Positions 9,237 through 28,417 of a stretch of 32,000 nucleotides of DNA are shown in pieces. This DNA comes from Dickeya dadantii NCPPB 898 (GTDB taxonomy: Bacteria; Pseudomonadota; Gammaproteobacteria; Enterobacterales; Enterobacteriaceae), in contig NZ_CM001976.1 in assembly GCF_000406145.1 (NCBI RefSeq), positions 1,922,061-1,954,060 of the forward strand. The letters run 5' to 3'. The notes under the pieces are model-generated. The model made no database searches. It worked only from the letters and a program-made list of their open reading frames with translations, and was not told where the DNA came from. Numbering within the stretch: position 1 is the stretch's first letter; the number at the start of each line of letters is the position of its first letter. Made by a program: the position numbers and the translations under genes.

Positions 9237-9661
9237 CAGACTCCCCAAACAACAGATACATTCAGTATCCGGCATGGGTGGAATCATGGCTGTCAGCAGA
9301 TTGCGGCGAGTAGCAGAATCCTGCGGTTTTTTTATTTCAAACTGATTCCAACACCGACAGTGGCCGATCTACGCCGCAACCCACCGCAACAGGTTTTCCC
9401 ACCGTTTATGAGAGTAACGCTATGGCTGTCGATCAGCGGTCGGCTGAATGCCAGAGCCCGGCGCGAGCCGTCGTCGCCGTTGGTAAGTGAGCGATTTCGT
9501 TCATTAAGATGGTACCGGGTGTACCGCGCAGTCTCCTTATCTGGCAACGCTTTGATGGCGGTAATGGACGCAATTTCTTCATACAAGTGTCATCTGAAAA
9601 GGATAGGGTTCGCTCAGGTTGTTGATCGATAACGGTCACGATAATGACAAGGAACACCCTT

Positions 9662-10435
9662 ATGCTGACTCAGGCGGAAGAGCGTCAGGCGAAAATCGTT
9701 GAATTTCTGCGCGAAGAGAATTTTGTTGATCTGCGCACGTTAACGAAGCGATTCGAGGTGTCGGTCGCCACCGTCCGTCGGGATCTTTGCGACCTTGAAG
9801 GCGCCGGAATGCTGCGCAGGACGCATGGTGGCGCGGTCAATATCAATCAGGTCGCTCTGGACGCGACAAACGAGGCCCGTGCCGTCTGGAATCAGGCGCA
9901 GAAGGCGGCCATCGCCGTCGTCGTCGGCGCCATGATCGCCGATGGCGACACCGTGCTTCTGGATGCCGGTACGACCGCGCTGGAAGTGGCTAAACAGCTT
10001 GTCGGTCGTCAGAGCCTGACGCTGATTTCGAATGGCCTTGATATCGTTGCTGAATTTTCGCGAGGCGAGGGGCAAAGCATTTACTCGGTCGGGGGCGAAT
10101 TTACCGCAACGAACCGCTCATTCAGAGGCCCTTTGGCGGAGTATTTCATACGGCAGTTTAATGTCGACAAACTGATCCTGAATGCCGCGTCGATCGACGT
10201 CGACCGTGGTTTGATCTGCACTTCATCGCCGGTGAATGCGAGTGTCGCACGGGCCATGATCGACGTGTCGAACCGCGTCATTGTGGTGGCTGACCACTCG
10301 AAGTTCACGAAATCAAGCCTCTCGGTCATCACCCGGATAGAAGACGTGGGCGTCATTGTTACCGATGCCGGCGCCCGCAGCATCATCGAAACAGTACCTG
10401 AAAAACTGCGCAAGAAGTTTGTCATCGCGCACTGA
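9662..10435 (+). CDS. DeoR-family transcriptional repressor (AccR-like position)
   Basis: The N-terminal HTH (FVDLRTLTKRFEVSVATVRRDLCDLEGAGMLRRTHGGA) plus a DeoR C-terminal sugar-phosphate sensor domain identify the family. I prefer the ATG at 9662 (AAGGA RBS 8 nt upstream) over the ATG at 9644, which has no RBS. Confidence 0.8.
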   Translation: MLTQAEERQAKIVEFLREENFVDLRTLTKRFEVSVATVRRDLCDLEGAGMLRRTHGGAVNINQVALDATNEARAVWNQAQKAAIAVVVGAMIADGDTVLLDAGTTALEVAKQLVGRQSLTLISNGLDIVAEFSRGEGQSIYSVGGEFTATNRSFRGPLAEYFIRQFNVDKLILNAASIDVDRGLICTSSPVNASVARAMIDVSNRVIVVADHSKFTKSSLSVITRIEDVGVIVTDAGARSIIETVPEKLRKKFVIAH

Positions 10436-10483
10436 ACCCCGACCCTCTGGTCGACGGCCCCGCTTACTTAAGGAGTGGTTTGG

Positions 10484-12046
10484 ATGAAGATAAGAACCTT
10501 TATCGGTATGGCGGCGTTGATCGCCATCTCCCTTTCAGGCGGCATCGCGGCCGCTCAGGAAGACAATCGTCCTGAGCTACGGATCGCGGTTCAGAAAAAC
10601 CCGGAGACACAGGAGCCGGTCGACGCGGCGTCCAACGTCGCTTTCCGCAACAATCCCTCGATTCACGAGACGCTGCTGAAACTTGACCTTGATGGCCACT
10701 TCTCGGTGCAGCCGAACCTGGCGACCTCGTGGCGATGGATTGACGATAAAACCCTCGAAGTAAAGCTGCGCAAAGGGGTCATTTTCCACGACGGCCGTGA
10801 GATGACCGCGGAGGACGTCGCCTTTTCGTTCGGACCGGAACGGTTGACCGACCCGAAGGCGCCCGGTTATCCCACCTATCTGACCAGCTTCAGCAGCCTT
10901 GCTCATGTCGATGTGGTGGATCCGGAAACCGTCCGTTTCGTCACTAAGTTCAAGGACCCGATTTTGTTACAGCGGCTGGCCAGTTATGCCGCGGTGGTTA
11001 TCAGCAAAGACGCCTGGATTAAGATGGGCGGCGACTGGGCGAAGTGGAAACAAAAGCCGGTCGGCGCCGGGCCCTACAAGGTTCTCGAATCTGTTGCCAA
11101 CGATCATGTCACGCTGGTCGCTCACGACAGGTATTTCGGTGGAAAGCCTAATGCGAAGCGCGTCACCTTCAAGGTGGTGCCGGAAGTGTCATCCCGTATC
11201 GCCGGCCTTCTGGCGGGGGATTATGACATTGCGACCGATTTGCCGCCGGATCAGCTCGACGTGGTGAACAAGTCCGGCAACGCGACGGTCGTCGGAGGCC
11301 CGGTGCCGAACAACCGCATCCTCTTCTTCGACAAGTACAACCCGGCGCTCAAGGATCCGCGCGTTCGTCAGGCGTTGATTCTTGCCATCGACCGTCAGGC
11401 GATCGTCGACACCATCTGGAACGGCCTGACCGTCGTCCCGAACGGCGAGCAGTTCAAGGAGTTCGGCCCCATCTACATGAAGGACCGGCCGAAATACGAA
11501 TACAATCCGGAAAAAGCCCGGCAACTGCTGAAAGCGGCCGGCTACAAAGGCGAACCGATCGCAATCCGCTCGCAGAACAACTACTACACGGCTGAAAACA
11601 CGGTCAGCGAAGCGGTCGTCGCCATGTGGCAGGCGGTCGGCATCAACGCCAAACTGGAGTTTGTTGAAGCCGGCAAGCTCTTCGATAACGCCAACGGTCG
11701 GGCGACCGGCAACTGGTCCAGCACCGCGGTTATTGCCGACCCTTACGTCTCCATCTACTCGATGGCGTTCGCCAGAACCGCATCGATGGGCACGCAGAAG
11801 ATCTGGATCAATGACGAATTCGATGCGCTCGGCGCGAAGCTTGAACAGGCGGTAGCTCCGGCGGATCGCGCCAAAATCTTCTCCGACATGCTGGACATCA
11901 TTGAATGGAAGGACCCAGGCATCACTGTCCTTCACCAGAACGCCGTCTTCTTCGGCGTCTCCAACAAGGTGAAGTGGAAACCGCAGCACGCCTTCGCGAT
12001 GGATCTGGGTCCGCAAAACCTGTCCTTCGTCAATGCCGCCGGGTGA
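10484..12046 (+). CDS. ABC transporter periplasmic solute-binding protein, family 5 (peptide/nickel/opine type), AccA-like
   Basis: The ATG at 10484 has an AGGAG RBS 8 nt upstream. The signal peptide is MKIRTFIGMAALIAISLSGGIAAAQE. The 520-aa length and motifs (GAGPYKV, DHVTLVAHDRYFGGKP) are typical of SBP_bac_5. Confidence 0.85.
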   Translation: MKIRTFIGMAALIAISLSGGIAAAQEDNRPELRIAVQKNPETQEPVDAASNVAFRNNPSIHETLLKLDLDGHFSVQPNLATSWRWIDDKTLEVKLRKGVIFHDGREMTAEDVAFSFGPERLTDPKAPGYPTYLTSFSSLAHVDVVDPETVRFVTKFKDPILLQRLASYAAVVISKDAWIKMGGDWAKWKQKPVGAGPYKVLESVANDHVTLVAHDRYFGGKPNAKRVTFKVVPEVSSRIAGLLAGDYDIATDLPPDQLDVVNKSGNATVVGGPVPNNRILFFDKYNPALKDPRVRQALILAIDRQAIVDTIWNGLTVVPNGEQFKEFGPIYMKDRPKYEYNPEKARQLLKAAGYKGEPIAIRSQNNYYTAENTVSEAVVAMWQAVGINAKLEFVEAGKLFDNANGRATGNWSSTAVIADPYVSIYSMAFARTASMGTQKIWINDEFDALGAKLEQAVAPADRAKIFSDMLDIIEWKDPGITVLHQNAVFFGVSNKVKWKPQHAFAMDLGPQNLSFVNAAG

Positions 12047-12056
12047 GGTTGTTATA

Positions 12057-12929
12057 ATGCGCGAATCCGTTCTCTCCATTCACGACTTGAGCATTTCCTT
12101 TCCCGCGGGAAAGCACAGGACGACGCCGGTCAGGTCGGTATCCTTTGACGTCAGGAAGGGCGAAATACTGGGCATTGTGGGGGAAAGCGGTTCCGGAAAA
12201 TCGCTTTCATGCCTCGCCGTAGCCGGCCTGCTGCCGGCTACGGCCCAGGCTTCCGGCGCGGTCGCTATTGGCGGCCAGACGTTCGCCGCCGCCGATCTGC
12301 CGAAAGCGCTGGCGTCGAAACGACTTCCGCCGATCGGCATGATCTTCCAGGAACCGGTATCCTGCCTCAATCCGGTACGCAGCGTTGGCGAGCAAATCGC
12401 CGAGGCGGCGCGAAGTGCCGGGCATTCTGCGGAACAGGCCCGCAAGATTGCGCTGCAACTCCTGAAAGACGTCGCCATCGACGAGCCGGAGACGCGCTAC
12501 CATGACTATCCTTCGCAGTTTTCCGGCGGCATGTGCCAGCGCGTCATGATCGCCACGGCGCTGGCGCTGGAACCGCAACTGGTCATCGCCGACGAACCGA
12601 CGACCGCGCTCGACGTCACGGTGCAGGCTCAGGTGGTGTCGCTGCTGGTGTCGCTGGTACGCCAACGCGGCATAGCCATGATTTTCATCAGCCACGACCT
12701 TGACCTGATCGCGGAGGTCTGCGATCGCATCGTCGTGATGTACGGCGGTGAGATCATGGAAGTCGGCACGACTGAAAACATCTATGCACGTCCGAGCCAT
12801 CCCTACACCCGGCTGTTACTCAACGCGATGCCGGGGCACGGCGAACCGCTCACCCGGCTGGTGGAAATGCCCCACGACTGGCGGCTTGACGCGGCTGCAT
12901 CATTAACCTCAGTGGAGCGTATACCATGA
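12057..12929 (+). CDS. ABC transporter ATP-binding protein (OppD/DppD type)
   Basis: The ATG at 12057 follows a GAGG RBS. It carries Walker A GESGSGKS, signature FSGGMCQR, Walker B VIADEPTTALD and H-loop ISHD. Confidence 0.85.
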   Translation: MRESVLSIHDLSISFPAGKHRTTPVRSVSFDVRKGEILGIVGESGSGKSLSCLAVAGLLPATAQASGAVAIGGQTFAAADLPKALASKRLPPIGMIFQEPVSCLNPVRSVGEQIAEAARSAGHSAEQARKIALQLLKDVAIDEPETRYHDYPSQFSGGMCQRVMIATALALEPQLVIADEPTTALDVTVQAQVVSLLVSLVRQRGIAMIFISHDLDLIAEVCDRIVVMYGGEIMEVGTTENIYARPSHPYTRLLLNAMPGHGEPLTRLVEMPHDWRLDAAASLTSVERIP

Positions 12930-13798
12930 GTTTGAGCGCGTCAGCCAGGACGACAGTCCTTGAGGCCCACGATCTGGATTTCACTTACCACGCCGGATTT
13001 TCTCTTCTGCCGGGTAGTCGGGTCGGTCATCATGCCGTCCGTGGTGTTTCGCTCGCGCTTGGTCAGGGCGAAACGCTCGGTCTGGTCGGCGAGTCTGGAT
13101 GCGGGAAATCAACCCTGGCCGCATTGCTGTGCGGCGACCGCCAGCCGGATAGCGGCACGCTGGCACTCTTCGGCGCACCCTTCGCCGGCTATCTCAGGCC
13201 GAATCGCCGGCGTCTGGCCCGCGTTCTTCAGGTCGTCGCACAAGATACGCTTGGGGCGTTCGACCCGCGGCATACCATCGGCCGGCAGATTGAGGAAGTG
13301 CTGCTGATTCATGCTATCGGCGGCAAGAGCGAGCGGCGCGATCGGGCCAGAGAAGCGCTCGGCGCCGTGGCGCTGCCGGGCGCCATGTTGGATCGTTATC
13401 CGCATCAGATGTCGGGAGGGCAGCGGCAGCGCGCCGCCATCGCCCGGGCGCTGGTGACCGAACCCAACATCCTGCTTTGCGATGAACCCGTCTCGGCGCT
13501 GGATGTGTCGGTTCAGGCTCAGGTGCTCAATCTCCTGCTCGATCTTCAGGAGAAGCGCGGTCTTTCTATCCTGTTCATCAGCCACGATGTGCGCGTGGTG
13601 CGCCATGTGTCGCATCGGGTCGTCGTGATGCAGGCCGGTCGCGTGGTGGAGAGCGGGCCGACGTCAACCGTCTTCGCCGCGCCGTCCGACCCCTATACCG
13701 CGAAGTTGCTTGCTGCCGTGCCGAAAGGCAAGCGTCGGGCAAGCTCTGCGGATACGGCGTGCAGCCGCTTAATGCTGGCGGAGGCGAGAGCATGCTGA
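12926..13798 (+). CDS. ABC transporter ATP-binding protein (OppF/DppF type)
   Basis: The start overlaps the upstream stop (ATGA). It carries Walker A GESGCGKST, signature MSGGQRQR, Walker B LLCDEPVSALD and H-loop ISHD. Confidence 0.88.
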   Translation: MSLSASARTTVLEAHDLDFTYHAGFSLLPGSRVGHHAVRGVSLALGQGETLGLVGESGCGKSTLAALLCGDRQPDSGTLALFGAPFAGYLRPNRRRLARVLQVVAQDTLGAFDPRHTIGRQIEEVLLIHAIGGKSERRDRAREALGAVALPGAMLDRYPHQMSGGQRQRAAIARALVTEPNILLCDEPVSALDVSVQAQVLNLLLDLQEKRGLSILFISHDVRVVRHVSHRVVVMQAGRVVESGPTSTVFAAPSDPYTAKLLAAVPKGKRRASSADTACSRLMLAEARAC

Positions 13799-14718
13799 AC
13801 ATCATGACCGGCTCATTTTTTCGCGCGATATTGACGGTTTTCCTGGTGGTGACCTTCACCTTCGTGATGCTGCGCATCAGCGGCGACCCGATGACGTCGC
13901 TCCTTGGCGTCGAGACCCCGCCGCAGGTGGTCGACATGCTGCGCCAGCAATGGGGGCTGGATCGCCCGGTGGCCGAACAGTATTTCACCTATCTCGGCCG
14001 GATGCTGACCGGCGATTTCGGCACCTCGCTGCGAAGTGGTCAGGATGCGCTTGCCCTCATCATCGAGAAGGTTCCGGCGACGCTGCGGTTGATGGCGGCC
14101 GCGCTGGTACTGGCGCTGGCGGCAGGCGTCCCGCTGGGTATCGTCGCGGCCCGCTATCGTGGCGGATTTGTCGACCGCGCGGTGATGAGTCTCGCCGTGC
14201 TGACGCACTCTGTGCCAACCTTTCTGACCGGCATTCTTCTGATCCAGCTGTTTGCCGTAAAGCTGCGGCTGCTGCCGTCTGGCGGCGGGGCAACGCTCGC
14301 CCACATGGTGATGCCCACGCTGGTGATTGGGCTTTACAATGCCGGCGTCATCGCGCGATTCGTTCGTTCAAGCGCGCTGGAGGTGATCGGGCAGCGCTAT
14401 GTCCTCGCCGCCCGAGCGAAGCGGGTATCGGAGTGGGGGATTATCTTCAGGCATGTGATGCCGAACGCGGCGCTTCCCTTGCTGACGCTGCTCGGATTTT
14501 TGCTCGGCGGCATGATTGGCGGTTCTGCGGTGGTCGAGGCGGTATACGCCTGGCCCGGCGTTGGCCTGCTGTTGATCAGTTCGGTTGCTTCCCGCGATGT
14601 TGCGGTGGTTCAGGCGATTGTCATTCTCATCACGGTTGCGATGGTCAGCGCCAACCTGCTGGTCGACTTCCTGCACGCGGTGGCTGACCCCCGTCTGCGC
14701 TACCCGAAACGCGCTTAA
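13792..14718 (+). CDS. ABC transporter permease (DppB/OppB type)
   Basis: The ATG at 13792 has a GGAGG RBS 7 nt upstream and overlaps the upstream stop (ATGCTGA). The product is a polytopic BPD_transp_1-type protein (MLNIMTGSFFRAILTVFLVVTFTFVMLRISGDP...). Confidence 0.85.
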   Translation: MLNIMTGSFFRAILTVFLVVTFTFVMLRISGDPMTSLLGVETPPQVVDMLRQQWGLDRPVAEQYFTYLGRMLTGDFGTSLRSGQDALALIIEKVPATLRLMAAALVLALAAGVPLGIVAARYRGGFVDRAVMSLAVLTHSVPTFLTGILLIQLFAVKLRLLPSGGGATLAHMVMPTLVIGLYNAGVIARFVRSSALEVIGQRYVLAARAKRVSEWGIIFRHVMPNAALPLLTLLGFLLGGMIGGSAVVEAVYAWPGVGLLLISSVASRDVAVVQAIVILITVAMVSANLLVDFLHAVADPRLRYPKRA

Positions 14719-14729
14719 AGGAGGTGGTC

Positions 14730-15608
14730 ATGGCCGATATCACCCCTGAGTCACCCAAGCTGCCCTCCGGCGTCTTCACCAGACTTCCACGCATCAATCC
14801 GCTGCTGGCGGTATGTGTATCGATTATTGTGCTGGCGGTCGGTCTTGCGGTATTCGCCGACGTGCTGGCGCCATACGGCTTTGCTCAGATCGACCTGAGG
14901 GCCCGCAAGATGCCGCCGCTCCACGTCGGGGCCGGCGCTACGCACTGGCTCGGTACCGATGAGATGGGGCGCGACATCCTAAGCCGCATCTTTTACGCGC
15001 TGCGTATGAGCATCCTGATATCGCTCGGCGCGTCGATCATCAGCATGTTCATCGGCACGGCGCTGGGGCTTATCGCGAGTTTCCGTCGTGGCTTTGCCGA
15101 CGCCATCATCCGGGTGGCGGTCGATTTTCAGGCGTCCATGCCGTTTATTATCATCGCGCTTACGGTTTTGGCGTTTCTCGGCAACAGCCTCACGCTGTTC
15201 ATCTGCCTGCTGGGGTTATTTGGCTGGGAACGGTTTGCGCGCCTGACGCGGACCATGGCCGGCCTTGAACTGGGAAAACCCTATATCGCCGCGTTGCATC
15301 GCAACGGCGCGGGGAGTTTTCGCATCGCGATGGTTCACGTGCTCCCCAATATTCTGGCGGTGGTACTGGTCACCTTCACGGTGGTGATGCCTGAAATCCT
15401 CATTCTGGAATCATCGCTGAGTTTCCTTGGCCTCGGCGTGCAGCCGCCACTGGTCAGTCTGGGTTCCCTGGTGGGCGCCGGCCGCGACTACATCATGACC
15501 GAGTGGTGGATCGCTATCGTTCCGGGCGTGGTCATCTTCGTCCTGTCGCTAACCATTAGTCTTATCGGCGACCAGCTACGCGACATCTTCGACCCGACGC
15601 TGAAATGA
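14730..15608 (+). CDS. ABC transporter permease (DppC/OppC type)
   Basis: The ATG at 14730 follows an AAAGGAGG RBS. The product is polytopic and contains the HWLGTDEMGRDILSRIFY motif typical of DppC/OppC-type permeases. Confidence 0.85.
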   Translation: MADITPESPKLPSGVFTRLPRINPLLAVCVSIIVLAVGLAVFADVLAPYGFAQIDLRARKMPPLHVGAGATHWLGTDEMGRDILSRIFYALRMSILISLGASIISMFIGTALGLIASFRRGFADAIIRVAVDFQASMPFIIIALTVLAFLGNSLTLFICLLGLFGWERFARLTRTMAGLELGKPYIAALHRNGAGSFRIAMVHVLPNILAVVLVTFTVVMPEILILESSLSFLGLGVQPPLVSLGSLVGAGRDYIMTEWWIAIVPGVVIFVLSLTISLIGDQLRDIFDPTLK

Positions 15609-15686
15609 TCGAAACGCGCTGATTTCATCGCGCGGCGCTCTTCGCGCGAAACCGTGCTAAACGAAAGTGAACAGGAGACAGTGAAC

Positions 15687-16487
15687 ATGAATCCGTTAAG
15701 AATGACGCCAGAGACTCTGCGCCTCGGCGGCCACCGCGGCCACAGCGTCGGGGCGCCGGAAAACACCCTCGCCGCGTTTAAAAAGGCGTTTGAATACGGC
15801 GGCCGCGGCGTGACCTGTGAAACCGACCTCGGCATCACCCGCGATGGCGAACTGGTGCTGATTCACGACAGCACGGTTGACCGCACCACCAACGGCCGTG
15901 GCCTGGTGCAAAACATGACCTATGCCGAACTCGCCCAACTCGATGCCGGGCAATGGTTCAGCCATGAATTCGCCGGAGAGCGCGTTCCGCGGCTCAGGGA
16001 TGCGCTACAGCTTGCCCGCGAGCTTGGCATCATCTATCAGCTTGAGCTTAAGTTATACGATCGCAATGAGGTGCTTTTCCCGAAGCTCCGCGCGCTGATT
16101 GATGAACTGGACTGTGCCGAGCTATTGCAGTTTTCCTCGTTTGACTACGTGCAACTGAAGGCGGTGAAAGCGGCGATACCGGAAGTGCCGACCGTCGGCC
16201 TGATGCATTCTCGTTTGATCGACCCTGCCGCGCTGGCCCGGCAGGCCAATCTCGATGCGATGAATATTGAGATCTACCATTTTGCCAGCGGAGAGGCGCG
16301 CCAGCTGCATGACGAGGGTTTCGCCGCCTTCCTCTACCTGCCGGGACAGGAGCATCAGAAGCGCAAGGACTACGGCGTTGATATCGAAGCTCAGGTCGTG
16401 CAATGGATTCGTGACGGTCAGTTGGATCAACTGCTGGGCGATGACGTTGCGCAGGTGGCAAGGCTCAAACAGGAAGCCTTCGGCTGA
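15687..16487 (+). CDS. Cytoplasmic glycerophosphodiester-phosphodiesterase family enzyme (UgpQ/GDPD type), AccF-like position
   Basis: The ATG at 15687 follows an AGGAG RBS. GDPD catalytic motifs are present: GGHRGHSVGAPENTLAAF and CETDLGITRDGELVLIHDSTVDRTTNG. There is no signal peptide. Confidence 0.85.
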   Translation: MNPLRMTPETLRLGGHRGHSVGAPENTLAAFKKAFEYGGRGVTCETDLGITRDGELVLIHDSTVDRTTNGRGLVQNMTYAELAQLDAGQWFSHEFAGERVPRLRDALQLARELGIIYQLELKLYDRNEVLFPKLRALIDELDCAELLQFSSFDYVQLKAVKAAIPEVPTVGLMHSRLIDPAALARQANLDAMNIEIYHFASGEARQLHDEGFAAFLYLPGQEHQKRKDYGVDIEAQVVQWIRDGQLDQLLGDDVAQVARLKQEAFG

Positions 16488-16529
16488 GATGAAGAGGGCG
16501 CGGGAAATGATTGACCATTCACTAAGCGG

Positions 16530-16621
16530 TAAACCACACTGTTTGTCGTAGACCGTGTTTGCAATAGACGGTATTTGCAGTAGGCGGTGTTTGTAATAAA
16601 CCGTGTTTGCCGCAGACACGG
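16530..16621. repeat. Imperfect tandem array, about 5 copies of a 16-bp unit (TAGACCGTGTTTGCAA)
   Basis: The units are contiguous: 16549-16564 tagaccgtgtttgcaa, 16565-16580 tagacggtatttgcag, 16581-16596 taggcggtgtttgtaa, 16597-16612 taaaccgtgtttgccg. Degenerate copies flank them at 16530-16548 and from 16613 onward. The array is intergenic. Confidence 0.75.
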
Positions 16622-16677
16622 CTTCGGATTGGTTCATTGCGCTAACATTCATACCTCAGCGATCGTGGTGGTGAGAG

Positions 16678-17442
16678 ATGGTTATACCTAATGCCTTCAT
16701 GCTGTCCATTCGCGGCTACGGCGCGCTGGAGGCGCCTCATCGTCACGATCATTCGCAGTTGGTTTTACCGCTGTCCGGGTCGCTCAGTATTGATATCTCT
16801 GGGCAGAGCGCCCAGTTGGATCGCCGTCTGGCCGCCTATGTCGACAGGCATTTTCCTCATGCGCAGCAAAGCCGCGGGGCAAACCAGTTTCTGATTGTGG
16901 ACGTTGAGCCGGACCATCTGGATCCCCTTGTCGCGGACTATCTGGCATCGTGCCGGTTCCTGAGTCTTGCGCCGGAAGCCAACAATCTGATTGATTACAT
17001 GGGCACGATGCTGGTCAAAGGCCGGGTGCCCGACTCGCGGATTCAACTGTGGGCGCCGCTGTTGCTGGATGCGCTGACCGGCGAGGGGCCGCAGCCGCGT
17101 TCACGGCTGGCGGGGCTGATATCGGCTATCGACAGTGACCCTTTTCTGGACTGGACCACCGAGTTCATGGCGCAGCAGGCGGGGATGAGCGTCAGCCGGC
17201 TACATGCCGTGTTCCGCCGCGAACGCGATACCACGCCGCACGCCTGGCTGGCGCGGGTACGGCTGGGTCGGGTGCAGCACTGGCTGGCGACGACGAATCT
17301 GCCCATCGCCGAGATTGCCTACCGAGGCCGCTATGCCGATCAAAGCGCCCTGACCCGGGCCATGCGCAAGGCGACGGGGCTGACGCCAGCGGCGTTTCGA
17401 CAGCTGTCGCAGGAGTCTGGGCCTAAAGAACGCGAGTCTTAA
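16678..17442 (+). CDS. AraC/XylS-family transcriptional regulator (cupin-like N-domain plus C-terminal double HTH)
   Basis: The C-terminus (FMAQQAGMSVSRLHAVFRRERDTTPHAWLARVRLGRVQHWLATTNLPIAEIAYRGRYADQSALTRAMRKATGLTPAAFRQ) is a canonical AraC HTH. Confidence 0.8.
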   Translation: MVIPNAFMLSIRGYGALEAPHRHDHSQLVLPLSGSLSIDISGQSAQLDRRLAAYVDRHFPHAQQSRGANQFLIVDVEPDHLDPLVADYLASCRFLSLAPEANNLIDYMGTMLVKGRVPDSRIQLWAPLLLDALTGEGPQPRSRLAGLISAIDSDPFLDWTTEFMAQQAGMSVSRLHAVFRRERDTTPHAWLARVRLGRVQHWLATTNLPIAEIAYRGRYADQSALTRAMRKATGLTPAAFRQLSQESGPKERES

Positions 17443-17501
17443 TCAAGACGTGCGGCATAGGTTGCGCGATACTCTCCCGTCAGCAACGAGTGGAGAGCGG
17501 T

Positions 17502-18464
17502 ATGGTGGATGGTAAAAGAACAGTAGCGGGTGTGGCGTGCGGCATGGGGGCCGGCGCGCTCTGGGGGTTGGTTTTCCTGGCGCCGGAGCTGGTGCGTGCG
17601 TTTAGCCCGCTGCAGATCGCCATCGGCCGCTATATTGCCTACGGCCTGATTGCGTTGGTGTTGCTGGCGCTGCGCGGGCCGTCGCTGATGCGGCGACTGA
17701 CGCGCCGTGAGTGGTTCGCGCTGGGCTGGCTCTCGCTGGCGGGCAACACCCTGTATTACATTCTGCTGTCCAGCGCGGTACAGATGGCGGGCATCGCCGT
17801 CACGTCGTTGGTGATTGGTTTTATGCCGGTGGTGGTGACCTTGATCGGCAGCCGCGATCGGGGCGCGGTGCCGCTGCGCAGGCTGTTGCCGTCGTTGCTG
17901 ATGTGCGCGGCCGGCGCCCTGTGCATCGGCTGGCAGGCGCTGGGCGCGCCGGCGTCCGCCGCCGTGGGGGCTCAGGCGGTCGGCCTGCTGTGCGCGCTGG
18001 GCGCACTGATATCCTGGAGCAGCTTTGCCGTAGGCAACAGCCGCTGGCTGGCCCGCGTGTCTTCTGTCTCGGCCCATGACTGGAATCTCATGATGGGTAT
18101 CGTTACCGGCGCGCAGTCGCTGGTGCTGATTCCTTTCGCCATCATGCTTAACACCAACAGCCACAGCGACGTCGCCTGGGCGCAGTTCGCCGGCGTATCT
18201 ATCGGGTTGGCGGTGCTGGCTTCCATCGTCGGCAACCTGTTTTGGAACCAGATGAGTCGCCTGTTGCCGCTCACGCTGGTCGGGCAGATGATTTTGTTTG
18301 AAACCCTGTTCGCGCTGATTTACGGCTTTTTGTGGGAGCAACGCTTGCCCACGTATCTGGAGGCCGCCGCTTTTACGCTGGTGGTTTGCAGCGTGGCGTC
18401 CTGCGTCGCGGTACACCGGAAACCCGTGCCTCATGACGACGAAGACGGTTTAACCACTGCTTAA
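17502..18464 (+). CDS. DMT-superfamily inner-membrane protein, YtfF-like
   Basis: The ATG at 17502 follows a GGAGAG RBS. GALWGLVFLAPELV...IGRYIAYGLIAL resembles the E. coli YtfF N-terminus, and the roughly 320-aa polytopic product fits. Confidence 0.78.
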   Translation: MVDGKRTVAGVACGMGAGALWGLVFLAPELVRAFSPLQIAIGRYIAYGLIALVLLALRGPSLMRRLTRREWFALGWLSLAGNTLYYILLSSAVQMAGIAVTSLVIGFMPVVVTLIGSRDRGAVPLRRLLPSLLMCAAGALCIGWQALGAPASAAVGAQAVGLLCALGALISWSSFAVGNSRWLARVSSVSAHDWNLMMGIVTGAQSLVLIPFAIMLNTNSHSDVAWAQFAGVSIGLAVLASIVGNLFWNQMSRLLPLTLVGQMILFETLFALIYGFLWEQRLPTYLEAAAFTLVVCSVASCVAVHRKPVPHDDEDGLTTA

Positions 18465-18596
18465 CGGCCACTTAGCCGCTGCGCCCTTACGGACGAAAAA
18501 AACGCGCGGCGCTGATTGGCCCGGAAAGACCGATTCCTTATGGTGGACGCTTGTTTTACTCTGTGGCCTGAGGCGATATTTTTTGCAGGGTGACAG

Positions 18597-19472
18597 ATGA
18601 GCCAGTACGAGGCGTTCGAGGTATTACAGCATTATAAAACCCGGTTGCAGGAGACGGTCACGCTTGCCAACGAGGTGCAACTGGCGGTCTGGCAAAACAG
18701 TCACGATCGGGTCACGCTGGAAAACGCCCATCACCACATTTTCAGCATGTACGTGCAGGATGGCTACGAAAGCTACCACAAGCGTCCGGACGGGTGGTTC
18801 AACGGCGGCGCGCCGGGGCGTTTTTGTCTGATGCCGAAAGAGAGCCAGTCCACCTGGGATATTCGCGGCAGCCTGCGGTTCGCCCACTTTTACTGTACCG
18901 ATCAGCACCTGCGCCAGCTGGCGGAGCAAACCTGGGATCGCAGCCCGGCGTCGATTCGTCTGGATGAGCGTATTTTTATCGCCGACCCGGCGCTGGAGGC
19001 GCTGTACCGCCATTTCCTGCTCGCCGGCAACTGGGGCGACCCGGCCAGCCAGATGACGCTGAGTTCCGCGACCACGTTGGTGATGCTGCATATGCTGCGT
19101 CAGTACAGCCAGTTGCAGTGGCAGGCGCCGAACAGCCGCGGCGGGCTGGCCCCGGCGGTGTTGCGGCGGGTAAAGGCGCGGATTGACGCCCGGTTGGGGG
19201 AGCCGCTTACGCTGGCCGAGCTGGCGGCGGAAGCCGATCTTAGCGAGTTTCATTTTTCCCGCATGTTCCGCCAGAGCGAGGGCATGGCGCCGCATCAGTA
19301 TGTGATGAAGCGGCGGCTGGCGCAGGCGGAACAGTGGCTACGCCACAGCCGCCGTTCCATCACCGATATCGCGCTGGCCTGCGGGTTCAGCTCCGCCAGC
19401 CATTTCAGCCAGCGCTTTCGCGCCGAGTACGGCATCACGCCTTCGGCGCTGCGTCAGCAATGCTCAGGCTGA
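18597..19472 (+). CDS. AraC-family transcriptional regulator
   Basis: The C-terminal double HTH is LAELAAEADLSEFHFSRMFRQSEGMAPHQYVMKRRLAQAEQWLRHSRRSITDIALACGFSSASHFSQRFRAEYGITPSALRQ. Confidence 0.85.
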   Translation: MSQYEAFEVLQHYKTRLQETVTLANEVQLAVWQNSHDRVTLENAHHHIFSMYVQDGYESYHKRPDGWFNGGAPGRFCLMPKESQSTWDIRGSLRFAHFYCTDQHLRQLAEQTWDRSPASIRLDERIFIADPALEALYRHFLLAGNWGDPASQMTLSSATTLVMLHMLRQYSQLQWQAPNSRGGLAPAVLRRVKARIDARLGEPLTLAELAAEADLSEFHFSRMFRQSEGMAPHQYVMKRRLAQAEQWLRHSRRSITDIALACGFSSASHFSQRFRAEYGITPSALRQQCSG

Positions 19473-20705
19473 AGGCTGCTGCGCCGCCAGCAGGCACAGC
19501 GTCAACGCCACCTGATAGGATTTGACGAACGACGGCAGCGGCAGAAACTCAAAGCGTGAATGGAAGTTGTGCGCGCCGGTAAAAAAGTTCGGCGTCAGAA
19601 TGCCTTTGGCCGACAGCGCCGCGCCGTCGGTGCCGCCGCGCATCGGAATCACGTTCGGCGCTATCGACAGGGTGTCCATGGCGGCGAACAGCAGATCCAG
19701 CGCCCGCCGGTCGTCTCCCAGCGCGTTGCTGATGTTGCTGTAGATATCGGCGATGGCGCAGCTGACCTGACCGGTGGGGTACCGGGCGGCGATCTGCGCC
19801 GCGACGTCGCGTATCTGCTGTTTACGCTGTGCAAAGCCGGCCAGATCGAAATCGCGGATCGAGGCTTTCAGCACCGCCTCATTGGCGTTGGCGTGAATGT
19901 CGTTGAACCAGACGTAACCTTCGCGGCCTTCGGTGTGCTCCGGGGTGTGCCGGCGGTCAAACTGGCTGATGAAATCGTGCGCCATCAGGATCGGGTTGAC
20001 CAGCACGCCTTTGGCCGACATCGGGTGCGCGGTGACGCCGGTAAAACGGATTTCCGCGGCGGCGGCGTTAAAATTCTCGTATACCACTTCGCCCAGTTCA
20101 CAGCAGTCGATGGTGTAGGCGAAATCGACGTCGAAACGCGCCAGATCCAGCGCCTTGGCGCCACGTAGCCCAATCTCTTCATCCGGCACGAACGCTACCA
20201 CGATATCGCCGTGCGGCTGGTCGTCGCGCAAATTTTCCAGTAGCGTCATCACCACGGTGACGGCGGCTTTGTTGTCTGCCCCCAGCACGCTGGTGCCGTC
20301 GCTGAAAATAATCTCCTGATCGCGATAGGGCAGGATTTCCGGATGCTCGCCGACCCGCAGCCAGATGTCCTGCGCTGGATTGAGACACAGATCTTCGCCG
20401 CTAAAACGCAAGGTTTGCGGATGAATTTCCGGCGACAGGCCGACATCCACGGTGTCGATATGGGTGATGAAGCCGATGCGCGGCGCGGACGGCGTGTTGC
20501 CCGGCTTCACGGCGGTGACGGTGGCGTGCTCGTCGCACACCACCTGGCTCAGCCCCAGCGCGCGCAATTCTTCCGCCAGCAACCGGGCCATCGCCATCTG
20601 GCCCGGCGTGCTCGGCAGCGTGGTCGCGGCGGCGTCGCTTTGGCTGGTGACCGCCAGATAGCGGTAGAAACGGTCGGTCAACTGACGCGCCAGGTTATTG
20701 TTCAT
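19464..20705 (-). CDS. pepT: Peptidase T family (M20B tripeptide aminopeptidase) paralog
   Basis: The ATG at 20705 follows an AAGGAA RBS. IGFITHIDTVD, LGADNKAAV, PHGDIVVAFVPDEEIG and MRGGTDGAALS..PNFFTG..NFHS are collinear with E. coli PepT motifs, at roughly 40 percent identity by eye. Confidence 0.85.
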   Translation of the reverse strand: MNNNLARQLTDRFYRYLAVTSQSDAAATTLPSTPGQMAMARLLAEELRALGLSQVVCDEHATVTAVKPGNTPSAPRIGFITHIDTVDVGLSPEIHPQTLRFSGEDLCLNPAQDIWLRVGEHPEILPYRDQEIIFSDGTSVLGADNKAAVTVVMTLLENLRDDQPHGDIVVAFVPDEEIGLRGAKALDLARFDVDFAYTIDCCELGEVVYENFNAAAAEIRFTGVTAHPMSAKGVLVNPILMAHDFISQFDRRHTPEHTEGREGYVWFNDIHANANEAVLKASIRDFDLAGFAQRKQQIRDVAAQIAARYPTGQVSCAIADIYSNISNALGDDRRALDLLFAAMDTLSIAPNVIPMRGGTDGAALSAKGILTPNFFTGAHNFHSRFEFLPLPSFVKSYQVALTLCLLAAQQPSA

Positions 20706-20819
20706 AACGGTTCCTTATTGGTAAACCCTATGGAAAATTCGGTATGGTTTTCAGCCATAATCAAAGGCTTCGTTGTACTCAGCGAGCCGCCCGGAAGTCA
20801 ATAAAAAACGAGGATGGGG

Positions 20820-22415
20820 ATGAAAAACGCAATAACGCGCGTCGCGCTGGCGGCGCTGACGCTGGCGGCCGCTCAGGCGGCGTGCGCCAAAACGCTGGTG
20901 TACTGTTCAGAAGGCTCGCCGGAGAATTTTAACCCGCAGCTGTATACCTCCGGCACCAGCGTGGACGCCAGCGCGGTGCCGATCTACAACCGGCTGGTGG
21001 ATTTCAAGGTCGGCACCACCGAGCTGGTGCCGAGCCTGGCGGAAAGCTGGGATATCAGCCCGGATGGCACCCAGTACACATTCCATCTGCGTAAAGGGGT
21101 GAAGTTTCATCGCAACGCGCAGTTTACCCCGAGTCGCGATTTCAACGCCGATGACGTAATTTTCTCTTTTCAGCGCCAGCGCGACCCCAATCATCCGTAT
21201 CACAAGGTATCCGGCGGCACCTACGCCAATTTTGAGAGCCTGTCGTTCCGCAGCCTGATTACCGCCATCGACAAGCCGGATGATTATACGGTGCGCTTTA
21301 CCCTGAGCCATGCGGAAGCGCCGTTTCTGGCCGATTTGGCCTGGTATTTCGCGTCGATCCTGTCCGCCGAATACGCCGACCAGATGCTGAAGGCCGGCAC
21401 GCCGGAGAAAGTGGATCTGGAACCGATCGGTACCGGCCCGTTCCAACTGGCGCAGTACCAGAAAGATTCCCGCATCCTGTATCAGGCGTTCCCGAATTAC
21501 TGGCAGGGCAAAGCGAAACTGGACCGGCTGGTGTTCAGCATCACGCCGGACGCTTCGGTGCGTTACGCCAAGCTGCGCAAGAACGAATGTCAGGTGATGC
21601 CGTTTCCCAATCCGGCGGAGCTGGCGGACATGAAGAATAACAAGGACATTACCCTGATGCAGAAAGCCGGCTTGAATATCGGTTTTCTGGCCTTCAATAC
21701 CCGCAAAGCGCCGCTGGATAACGTCAAGGTGCGTCAGGCGCTGACGATGGCGATCAACAAACCGGCGATTATCGAGGCGGTGTTTCAGGGCACCGGCAGC
21801 GCGGCCAAAAACCTGCTGCCGCCCGGCGTATGGAGCGCGGCAGCCGACCTGAAGGACGATGAATACGACCCGGAAAAAGCCAGATCGCTGCTGAAAGACG
21901 CCGGGCTGGCGGAAGGAACCGCTATCGATCTGTGGGCGATGCCGGTACAGCGACCGTATAACCCCAATGCGCGCCGCATGGCGGAAATGATTCAGGCCGA
22001 CTGGGCGAAGGTGGGGGTAAAAGCAAATATCGTCAGTTACGAGTGGGGCGAATACCTCAAACGGGTGAGGAGCGGCGAGCATCAGGCGGCGCTGATGGGC
22101 TGGACCACCGCCACCGGCGATCCGGACAATTTCTTCGGCCCGCTGTTTACCTGTACTTCCGCCAATGGCGGGTCCAACTCCGCCAAATGGTGCTACCCGC
22201 CGTTTGATAAGCTGATTACCGACGCGCGCGCCGAGCAGGATCACCAGAAACGCGTGGAATTATACCGTCAGGCGCAGTTCATGATGCATGAGCAGGCGCC
22301 GGCGGTGATGATCGCGCACTCGACTATCTTTGAGCCGGTGCGCAATACGGTGACCGGGTATGAAATCGATCCGTTCGGCAAGCACATTTTCTATCAGGTG
22401 GATATCCGGCAGTAA
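20820..22415 (+). CDS. dppA: DppA-like periplasmic dipeptide-binding protein (orphan, with no adjacent dppBCDF)
   Basis: [26 protein letters not shown]...GTGPFQL...[31 protein letters not shown]...SKWCY are strongly collinear with E. coli DppA. I prefer the ATG at 20820 over 20814 because of RBS spacing. The dppA symbol denotes family membership only; this is probably a paralog. Confidence 0.88.
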
Positions 22416-27640: not shown

Positions 27641-28417
27641 TCAGGCCAGCAGCACTTGTCCGCAGGCCGCCTGTAGCGCGGGGTAATCGGCGTTGTGGAC
27701 GCTGGCGGCGTCGGTAATCAGCATGTCGATATCGGTGGGGGCGGCATAGAGAATGCGGCTGGTCACGCCGACCTTGCTGTGATCCGCCAGCATGATGCGT
27801 TGTCTGGCGCAGCGCGCCATCGCGCCCGCAATCGCCGCTTCATGATGGGAGAAGCTGCTGGCGCCGGACTGGCTGGCGATGCCGACCGGCGACAGCAGCG
27901 CGATATCGGCGCGGTAGCGCTGGATTTCCATTACCGTCAGCGCACCGCTGGTGGCCTGTGCGGACGCGCCCATGTGCCCGCCGAGCAGAATCACCTCGTG
28001 CGGCAAGCGTTCATCAGCGTCACCGGAAGTGAGTTTCAGCGCCACATTCAGGCTGTTGGTGATGATAGTCATGCCCGGCAGAGGGAGAAGTTCGCCAGCC
28101 AGTAGGGTGGTGGTGCTGCCGGCGTCGATAAACAGCGTCTGACCGGCTTTTAGCTGCTGTACCGCCAGCCGGGCGATCGCCAGCTTTTCCTGTTCCCGCA
28201 CCGTGTTGCGCACCGACAGCGGCGGCTCCGGTTCGGCGCCGGTCGCGACGATGCCGCCATGCACCCGGCGCAGCACGCCTTGCGCTTCCAGCTTGAGCAC
28301 ATCGCGCCGCACGGTTTCCCGCGATACCCCCAAATGCTGAATGATGTGGTCGGTAGTGACCCGGTTAAGGGACGACAGCAGCAGGCGGATACGGTGCAGG
28401 CGGGTTTCTTCAAGCAT
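27641..28417 (-). CDS. DeoR-family transcriptional regulator
   Basis: The HTH is VTTDHIIQHLGVSRETVRRDVLKLEAQGVLRRVHGGI, followed by a DeoR C-terminal domain. It is divergent from the aminotransferase gene. Confidence 0.85.
   Translation of the reverse strand: MLEETRLHRIRLLLSSLNRVTTDHIIQHLGVSRETVRRDVLKLEAQGVLRRVHGGIVATGAEPEPPLSVRNTVREQEKLAIARLAVQQLKAGQTLFIDAGSTTTLLAGELLPLPGMTIITNSLNVALKLTSGDADERLPHEVILLGGHMGASAQATSGALTVMEIQRYRADIALLSPVGIASQSGASSFSHHEAAIAGAMARCARQRIMLADHSKVGVTSRILYAAPTDIDMLITDAASVHNADYPALQAACGQVLLA

Follow-up and report, generated by a model that had tools for sequence, protein, structure and literature searches.

Opine catabolism is the textbook example of a nutrient niche that a bacterium, here Agrobacterium, creates for its private use. 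For the agrocinopine catabolism (acc) operon of the Ti plasmid pTiC58, it has been shown experimentally that AccA and AccBCDE import agrocinopine A. Arabinose-2-phosphate or glucose-2-phosphate, and not agrocinopine itself, binds the repressor AccR and leads to derepression; the AccR effector is the product of the phosphodiesterase AccF, and AccG is a putative phosphatase (PMC4526662). The opine-catabolic plasmid pAtK84b is reported to confer catabolism of agrocinopine and nopaline (PMC4231840, PMC6546132), and the two types of ACC region have been called "structurally and functionally different" (PMC6546132, citing Hayman and Farrand 1990). Here we describe an acc-like operon on the chromosome of the soft-rot bacterium Dickeya dadantii NCPPB 898. 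It lies in a 32-kb stretch of contig NZ_CM001976.1 (positions 1,922,061 to 1,954,060), referred to below as the window; all coordinates are in window numbering.

Orthology to the Agrobacterium acc operons

The locus consists of seven co-directional open reading frames (ORFs) on the plus strand (9644/9662-16487). Domains were assigned with Pfam, and start codons were refined using the positions of ribosome-binding sites (RBSs) and comparison with orthologues. The first gene, accR (9662..10435, with an alternative ATG at 9644), encodes a DeoR/GlpR-family repressor with HTH_DeoR and DeoRC domains. It is followed by accA (10484..12046, starting with ATG), which encodes a periplasmic solute-binding protein (SBP) of the SBP_bac_5 family and of the pAtK84b type. 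Two ATP-binding cassette (ABC) ATPases come next, the OppD-like AccB (12057..12929, starting with ATG; the longest ORF begins at 12033) and the OppF-like AccC (12926..13798), each with ABC_tran and oligo_HPY domains. The permeases are the DppB-like AccD (13792..14718; BPD_transp_1 and BPD_transp_1_N) and the DppC-like AccE (14730..15608; BPD_transp_1 and OppC_N). For accE the ORF listing gives a GTG at 14724, and an AGGAGG RBS lies 5 nt ahead of the ATG at 14730. The last gene, accF (15687..16487), encodes a GDPD-domain protein, predicted to be a cytoplasmic agrocinopine-type phosphodiesterase. Its listed start is a GTG at 15654; the ATG at 15687 has an AGGAG RBS 9 nt upstream and agrees with the N terminus of pTiC58 AccF (MNPLRM). 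Stop and start codons overlap at accB/accC (ATGA, 12926-12929) and, over 7 nt, at accC/accD (ATGCTGA, 13792-13798), as read from the sequence, and the remaining intergenic gaps, with the RBS-supported starts, are 48, 10, 11 and 78 nt. The first-pass annotation of this DNA had described seven tightly packed genes of these families in one orientation, and the ORFs, the Pfam domains and the overlaps bear this out.

By blastp, window AccR was 75.5% identical to pTiC58 AccR and 76 to 78% identical to the two AccRs of pAtK84b. Window AccF was 83.5% identical to pTiC58 AccF, 81.6% identical to the product of the second accF of pAtK84b and 51.5% identical to that of the first. The transporter gave a different picture: AccA, AccB, AccC, AccD and AccE were 33, 44, 45, 45 and 47% identical to their pTiC58 counterparts and 83 to 87% identical to those of pAtK84b (86% and 83% for the two AccAs, 84.5% for AccB, 84.5% for AccC, 86.7% for AccD and 87% for AccE). 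For scale, the acc systems of C58 and Bo542 share 75% identity in AccA and 83% in AccR (PMC4526662). As judged from these identities, the window operon is a mosaic, in which AccR and AccF are near the pTiC58 proteins and the AccABCDE importer is of the pAtK84b type.

In a tblastn search of plasmids, SBPs with 86% identity to the window protein turned up on those of Agrobacterium, A. vitis and R. rhizogenes. One of these plasmids is pAtK84b, from the biocontrol strain K84, on which the annotation names the genes accA to accE. At the DNA level, megablast aligned 5 kb (window 10552-15629) with pAtK84b-type plasmids at 79% identity, and the accR and accF segments were 72 to 77% identical to the same plasmids. 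The blastn homology to Agrobacterium DNA extended from approximately 9576-9610 through approximately 16477-16491, which is exactly accR to accF. Since the whole block is colinear with Agrobacterium acc loci at 75 to 80% nucleotide identity, the gene arrangement is not due to chance. The order of pTiC58 is DeoR-SBP-ATPase-ATPase-permease-permease-GDPD-IMPase (inositol monophosphatase), and that annotated on pAtK84b is accR-accA-accB-accC-accD-accE-accF-accF-accG. The order that the first-pass annotation had given for acc, a DeoR-type regulator, SBP, two ATPases, two permeases and a phosphodiesterase, is that of both plasmids and of the window. On sequence criteria, each of the seven window genes is a true orthologue of its Agrobacterium acc counterpart and not a look-alike; the acc reading first put forward largely stands, and the resemblance is greater than it had assumed. 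Its comparison with the Ti plasmid holds for gene order, AccR and AccF; it fails for the transporter, which is of the pAtK84b and not the pTiC58 type, and for accG, which is missing.

The closest described region, that of the nopaline-type plasmid pAtK84b (Rhizobium rhizogenes K84; relatives on pOC-Colt5.8, pTiAv2 and A. vitis pTi), shares with the window the order accR-A-B-C-D-E-F, the 7-nt accC/accD overlap, an upstream element and a variant AccA pocket (both described below). The window operon differs from it in being chromosomal and enterobacterial, and in lacking accG, the link to traR/arc quorum sensing, the first accF paralogue (approximately 960 bp, Arad_14125 type) and the duplicated accR-accA pair. 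In Agrobacterium fabrum C58, the pTiC58 operon for agrocinopine catabolism (Kim and Farrand 1997; El Sahili et al. 2015) has the same order, families and candidate operator as the window, and the phosphate and hinge contacts of AccA are identical; the window differs in its transporter (33 to 47% identity), in part of the AccA pocket, and in having neither accG nor an adjoining arc/traR operon. Its genomic context is instead chromosomal (ybhGFSR-rhlE-EamA), without traR or arc genes.

The pAtK84b region holds further copies. A duplicated orphan accR-accA pair (11453-13987 of the retrieved region, L001) has an AccA that is nearer to window AccA than the operon copy is (86% versus 83%), and at 14468-18001 of the same region there is a third ABC set of the SBP_bac_5 type, within which a gdpD gene lies. 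The arrangement recurs on pAt12D1 (L002), where it adjoins traR.

Binding protein, phosphodiesterase and regulator

The acc products share with the Dpp, Opp, Nik and Gsi importers a common ABC architecture (cluster C SBP_bac_5 protein, OppD/F-type ATPases and DppB/C-type permeases) and with Ugp/UgpQ the GDPD fold. They differ from these systems in gene order, in the clade and pocket of the SBP, in the DeoR-type regulator and in equivalog scores that stay under the cut-offs. None of the NCBIfam equivalog cut-offs for the peptide, nickel, glutathione and UgpQ models was reached by an acc product, so that curated annotation rules yield generic names only; public annotation names the genes no more precisely than as those of a peptide ABC transporter and a glycerophosphodiesterase.

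Among solved structures, the best match of the window SBP was AccA of Agrobacterium C58, which binds agrocinopine and agrocin 84 (260 bits, E value of 3e-76); the next family scored 127 bits. Its NCBIfam scores were far under the cut-off for both the NikA-type (150 versus 600) and the DppA (113 versus 1005) models. A neighbor-joining tree of SBPs (200 bootstraps) was built with E. coli DppA, GsiB, NikA and OppA and a DppA-like SBP of the window as contrasts. The window SBP fell within an AccA superclade with 100% bootstrap support, and all five contrast proteins lay outside it. Inside the superclade, the Dickeya and Pectobacterium proteins were sisters (95%) and stood next to the two pAtK84b AccAs (100%). 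The protein thus does not group with the dipeptide, oligopeptide or nickel binders, a grouping that would have spoken against the first-pass annotation. The DppA-like SBP_bac_5 gene native to the window (20814-22415) lies beside genes for an M20 peptidase and an AraC regulator (19464-22415), and its product grouped with E. coli DppA at 100% bootstrap.

Pocket residues were tabulated at aligned positions in pTiC58 AccA numbering, with the residue roles taken from PMC4526662. The phosphate contacts Asn54, Tyr375, Tyr376 and Ser419 and the hinge residue Asn284 are all kept (N51, Y367, Y368, S412 and N276 in the window protein), and the phosphate-binding pocket on which the first-pass annotation depended is in place. 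Residues S53-N54, N284, N374-Y375-Y376 and W418-S419 are kept throughout the AccA superclade and absent from DppA, GsiB, NikA and OppA. The same division holds for the shortened 402-414 loop, which is described as unique to AccA (PMC4526662): the superclade has it and the four E. coli proteins do not. One residue listed for the pocket in that paper, "Glu504," was at odds with our alignment, in which position 504 of pTiC58 AccA (L083, 23299-24864) is a Trp that is invariant in the superclade. Our numbering reproduces Asn54, Asn284, Tyr375/376, Ser419, Trp423 and Glu510, and "Glu504" may be a typographical slip or a numbering offset.

Reading of the translations gave a Sec-type signal for the accA product (MKIRTFIGMAALIAISLSGGIAAA, followed by QED) and none for the accF product, in agreement with the signal-less GDPD noted earlier. 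The catalytic motifs of AccF (HRGH, PENT, CETD and HD..RTT) are intact, and its score against the UgpQ model NF006989 was 130 bits, with a cut-off of 264. On plasmids, AccF matches had 70 to 85% identity and each was followed by accG, and other plasmid GDPDs reached at most 42%. AccR matches on plasmids had 75 to 81% identity before a drop to 34% or less. Both proteins thus form discrete, high-identity clades on plasmids, always within acc loci. We considered this plasmid-only identity gap as proof of an opine-specific AccF clade; that use of it was weakened by a larger search, of 5.8 billion proteins, in which the clade proved much broader.

The 60 bp upstream of accR could be aligned among Dickeya, both pAtK84b copies, pTiC58 and D. 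fangzhongdai, and the alignment found the element upstream of accA in Pectobacterium as well. In the window this conserved element (9578..9628, plus strand) reads TTCATA-N5-GTCATCT, GATAGG and then an inverted repeat, CGCTCA-N6-TGATCG (9611-9628). The core common to the loci is a TCATA...GTCATCT repeat followed by a CGCTCA-N(5-7)-TGA(G/T)CGAT inverted repeat. The inverted-repeat pattern occurs once in the window, against 0.13 occurrences expected. We infer that the CGCTCA-N6-TGATCG element is the AccR operator, and it is treated here as a candidate. GATAAT at 9640-9645 was considered as a promoter element; the match is weak, and we do not claim it.

Predicted mechanism and substrate

We put at roughly 0.7 the probability that this locus is a chromosomal acc operon working as an import and cleavage system like that of pTiC58. 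The identities of AccR (75%) and AccF (83.5%) and the common candidate operator argue for the same circuit in Dickeya. Periplasmic AccA would bind an agrocinopine-type sugar phosphodiester by its pyranose-2-phosphate end, and AccBCDE would import it. Cleavage by cytoplasmic AccF would then release, in the case of agrocinopine A, sucrose together with L-arabinose-2-phosphate. The pyranose-2-phosphate would bind AccR, which would leave its operator upstream of accR and so derepress the operon. There is no accG in the operon, and the sugar phosphate would therefore have to be dephosphorylated by another, presumably housekeeping, phosphatase. The likely sources of substrate would be crown galls and hosts that, like sweet potato, are naturally transgenic and express an agrocinopine synthase.

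Several observations weigh against this interpretation. One concerns the sugar side of the AccA pocket, where Glu510 of pTiC58 AccA is replaced by Phe, Trp178 by Tyr, Trp423 by Val, Met372 by Gln and Glu434 by Ala. There are also a change of Thr430 to Ser and an Asp at position 513 alongside the Phe at 510, and the set is common to all pAtK84b-type AccAs. The full pTiC58-type pyranose pocket, with its Glu510 anchor for OH1 and its Trp178/Trp423 gate, which is the basis of agrocin 84 import, is thus not present, and window AccA appears to have retained the phosphate site with the sugar/aglycone side remodelled. For AccAs of the pAtK84b type, with this pocket unlike that of pTiC58 AccA, agrocinopine is a putative ligand, and the pAtK84b region holds several SBP/ABC/GDPD sets, any of which may be the agrocinopine importer. 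No AccG-type IMPase (Inositol_P) was found in the window ORFs scanned with Pfam outside the operon, and the gene after accF encodes an AraC regulator. A promoter scan found no convincing sigma-70 promoter upstream of accR; the promoter and terminator scan gave fewer matches than shuffled controls and nothing in that region. Finally, AccF-like proteins of 70 to 80% identity are encoded by many organisms with no known tie to crown galls; among them are Rhizobium (chromosomal genes), Devosia, Kaistia, Mesorhizobium, Paenibacillus (72%) and fungi of the Ascomycota (70 to 73%).

Sensitivity to agrocin 84 had been predicted in the first-pass annotation. Given the changes in the sugar pocket, this prediction does not follow from the presence of the operon, and we regard such sensitivity as doubtful. 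Hayman and Farrand reportedly described, in 1990, a pAtK84b-type locus that did not confer it.

Some of these observations keep alive a second explanation, which we consider unlikely though it is the most serious of the alternatives: that the operon is acc-type by descent, and that its substrate in Dickeya is some other, commoner phosphodiester of a sugar or polyol, derived from plants, fungi or microbes, with agrocinopines as one member of the range or no substrate at all. The breadth of the AccF clade, which takes in the bacteria named above and three ascomycete genera, one of them with the gene next to an MFS sugar transporter, weakens the notion that an AccF-like enzyme means a crown-gall opine; the substrate range of AccF may be broader than agrocinopines and other crown-gall opines. 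A pocket that retains the phosphate contacts and remodels the sugar side would fit another substrate, as would the missing accG, and most Dickeya hosts are not known as agrocinopine makers. Set against this, window AccR shares 75% identity with a regulator for which binding of arabinose-2-phosphate and glucose-2-phosphate has been demonstrated, window AccF is 83.5% identical to an agrocinopine phosphodiesterase, and the closest relatives of the transporter are all on plasmids reported to confer agrocinopine catabolism. We know of no other natural pyranose-2-phosphodiester. The literature on AccA regards this class of compounds as unique among natural products (PMC4526662).

An ordinary Dpp/Opp/Nik-class peptide or nickel importer, whose neighbors by chance are a glycerophosphodiesterase resembling UgpQ and a DeoR regulator of the sugar type, is highly improbable and effectively refuted: the best Pfam and NCBIfam models do name nickel, dipeptide and oligopeptide families and, for the GDPD, a glycerophosphodiester phosphodiesterase, and public annotation has the SBP as "peptide ABC transporter," but every NCBIfam match is sub-equivalog, the SBP stands apart from DppA, GsiB, NikA and OppA at 100% bootstrap and lacks their pocket residues, every gene has a 75 to 87% orthologue in acc loci (generic GDPDs, at most 42%), and a genuine DppA-like SBP is encoded elsewhere in the window (20814-22415).

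Acquisition, other carriers and plant setting

Homology by blastn to the corresponding D. zeae locus ends at window 9332 and restarts at 18527. This delimits a 9.2-kb insertion (9333..18526) that comprises the acc operon and an AraC/EamA gene pair. D. zeae and a more distant lineage of Dickeya have no insertion: their gene order is rhlE-EamA-AraC(291 aa)-M20, and the EamA gene directly abuts the AraC gene. D. fangzhongdai has the same context as the window (ybhGFSR-rhlE-EamA-acc-AraC-EamA-AraC-M20) and is approximately 90% identical to it in flanks and acc genes alike. Synonymous divergence (dS) of the acc genes from D. fangzhongdai was 0.20 to 0.40, matching that of the flanking rhlE (0.27) and M20 (0.22) genes. 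The ratio of nonsynonymous to synonymous divergence (dN/dS) was 0.07 to 0.20 for every acc gene in comparisons with each of D. fangzhongdai, Pectobacterium and pAtK84b. The protein cluster that matches the window (99% to D. dadantii) also includes D. solani and D. fangzhongdai.

The empty D. zeae site, a dS like that of the flanks and the low dN/dS together argue for a single old entry followed by upkeep through selection. As these comparisons indicate, the operon is a horizontally acquired, chromosomal one that entered once, in the ancestor of the D. dadantii/D. solani/D. fangzhongdai clade, and has been under purifying selection since; the locus is not recent. Overall GC content and GC content at third codon positions showed no foreign signature (0.60 for acc, 0.59 to 0.62 for the flanks). 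Composition is uninformative about the origin of acc, because the donor plasmids have approximately 59% GC (PMC6546132). At the insertion boundaries we found neither direct nor inverted repeats of more than 8 nt, and there is no tRNA gene or insertion sequence (IS) nearby. That the operon is a functionless, decaying relic of an old transfer, as the loss of accG, and of accR too in Pectobacterium, might suggest, is very improbable given seven intact ORFs, intact AccF catalytic motifs, the low dN/dS and the keeping of the locus in D. dadantii, D. solani, D. fangzhongdai and many Pectobacterium genomes.

The first-pass annotation knew of no such system characterised outside the Rhizobiales. That limit does not hold, as the cassette was found in Pectobacterium and Paraburkholderia, besides the AccF-like enzymes of Paenibacillus and fungi. 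A cluster of 120 members at 87% identity includes P. carotovorum, P. brasiliense and P. polaris. In Pectobacterium, accABCDEF sits between cysH and cysG in a sulfate assimilation cluster (P. polaris, L084, 9694-15979). This cassette resembles that of the window in its sister AccA (87% identity, 95% bootstrap), in the type of accF and in lacking accF1 and accG. It differs in its site (cysH/cysG instead of beside rhlE), in a DNA identity of only 79.5% and in the deletion of accR. The acc promoter/operator-like element is still present upstream of accA, and its retention without accR suggests that expression is constitutive or otherwise rewired.

In Paraburkholderia sp. J8-2 (L085), an AccF1-type phosphodiesterase gene precedes a pAtK84b-type accA-E transporter (77% homologue). 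Nearby are genes for an IMPase, a DUF4432 protein, a LuxR/TraR-like regulator and a methyl-accepting chemotaxis protein, and the locus has the look of an opine-catabolic plasmid fragment carried by a betaproteobacterium. On a Rhizobium leguminosarum chromosome (CP071626; L086, 2762-10612), an IS transposase gene immediately adjoins an accR-accG operon that is complete and of the pTiC58 type. Among ascomycetes, AccF-like proteins 70 to 73% identical to the Dickeya and Agrobacterium enzymes were found in Coleophoma, Ilyonectria and Clonostachys (P0238, P0260 and P0265). The gene of Coleophoma cylindrospora (L087, 6001-6819) is apparently intronless and adjoins an MFS sugar transporter gene. Its scaffold is genuinely eukaryotic, with profilin encoded on it, and the fungal genes look like products of interkingdom gene transfer.

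A complete, regulated and maintained acc operon on chromosomes of soft-rot pathogens (D. dadantii, D. solani, D. fangzhongdai and several Pectobacterium species) makes the opine niche common to unrelated pathogens. The novelty lies in the host lineage and the genomic surroundings of this acc operon, in which the importer is of the pAtK84b type and both accG and a quorum-sensing link are lacking. A literature search, within the library that could be searched, found no paper tying agrocinopine genes to Dickeya, Pectobacterium or Erwinia. D. dadantii is a pathogen of sweet potato, in which it causes stem and root rot. Dickeya can probably use as food the compounds that are made by crown galls or by plants that are naturally transgenic, sweet potato among them. 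The agrocinopine synthase of that crop, IbACS, is active, makes agrocinopine A and shapes the rhizosphere community; earlier work cited in the same study attributes the catabolism of agrocinopine to "a few other bacterial species," one of them a Leifsonia (bioRxiv 10.64898/2025.12.18.694140).

More tentatively, soft-rot Pectobacteriaceae might use the operon to profit from naturally transgenic hosts in which agrocinopine A is produced constitutively, and pyranose-2-phosphodiesters might be a general plant-microbe currency; we hold this wider proposal to be possible rather than likely. If it is true, an unrelated pathogen now draws food or signals from an Agrobacterium "opine niche" that became fixed in the genome of a crop, and the AccF-like enzymes of Paenibacillus and plant-associated fungi would mean that pyranose-2-phosphodiesters are far more general than crown-gall biology suggests. 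The locus connects soft-rot pathogens with the opine niche and naturally transgenic crops in a directly testable way. It offers a genetic handle on the benefit that a pathogen draws from crown galls or transgenic crops (sweet potato IbACS) and on the ligand of pAtK84b-type AccA. A pyranose-2-phosphate "gateway" has been proposed for Trojan-horse antibiotics, and the locus also raises the question of whether soft-rot bacteria could be attacked through it.

The remaining part of the insertion (16678..18464, plus strand) encodes, by Pfam, an AraC-family regulator (16678-17442) and an EamA/DMT transporter (17490-18464). The pair is absent at the D. zeae site and present in D. fangzhongdai, and the two genes are not recent paralogues of the flanking EamA and AraC genes (at most 27% identity). 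We considered the pair as a component of acc and rejected it, since acc loci in Agrobacterium, Pectobacterium and Paraburkholderia have no counterpart beside them. Between accF and the AraC gene, within the insertion, Tandem Repeats Finder reported 4.4 copies of a 16-bp repeat, TGTTTGCAGTAGACCG (16540..16610, score 72); in D. fangzhongdai a 59-aa ORF is called there. The array may represent binding sites for a regulator, or a scar left by the insertion. A second DeoR-family regulator is encoded on the minus strand at 27641-28417, alongside a class III aminotransferase gene; it is 29% identical to AccR and unrelated to acc.

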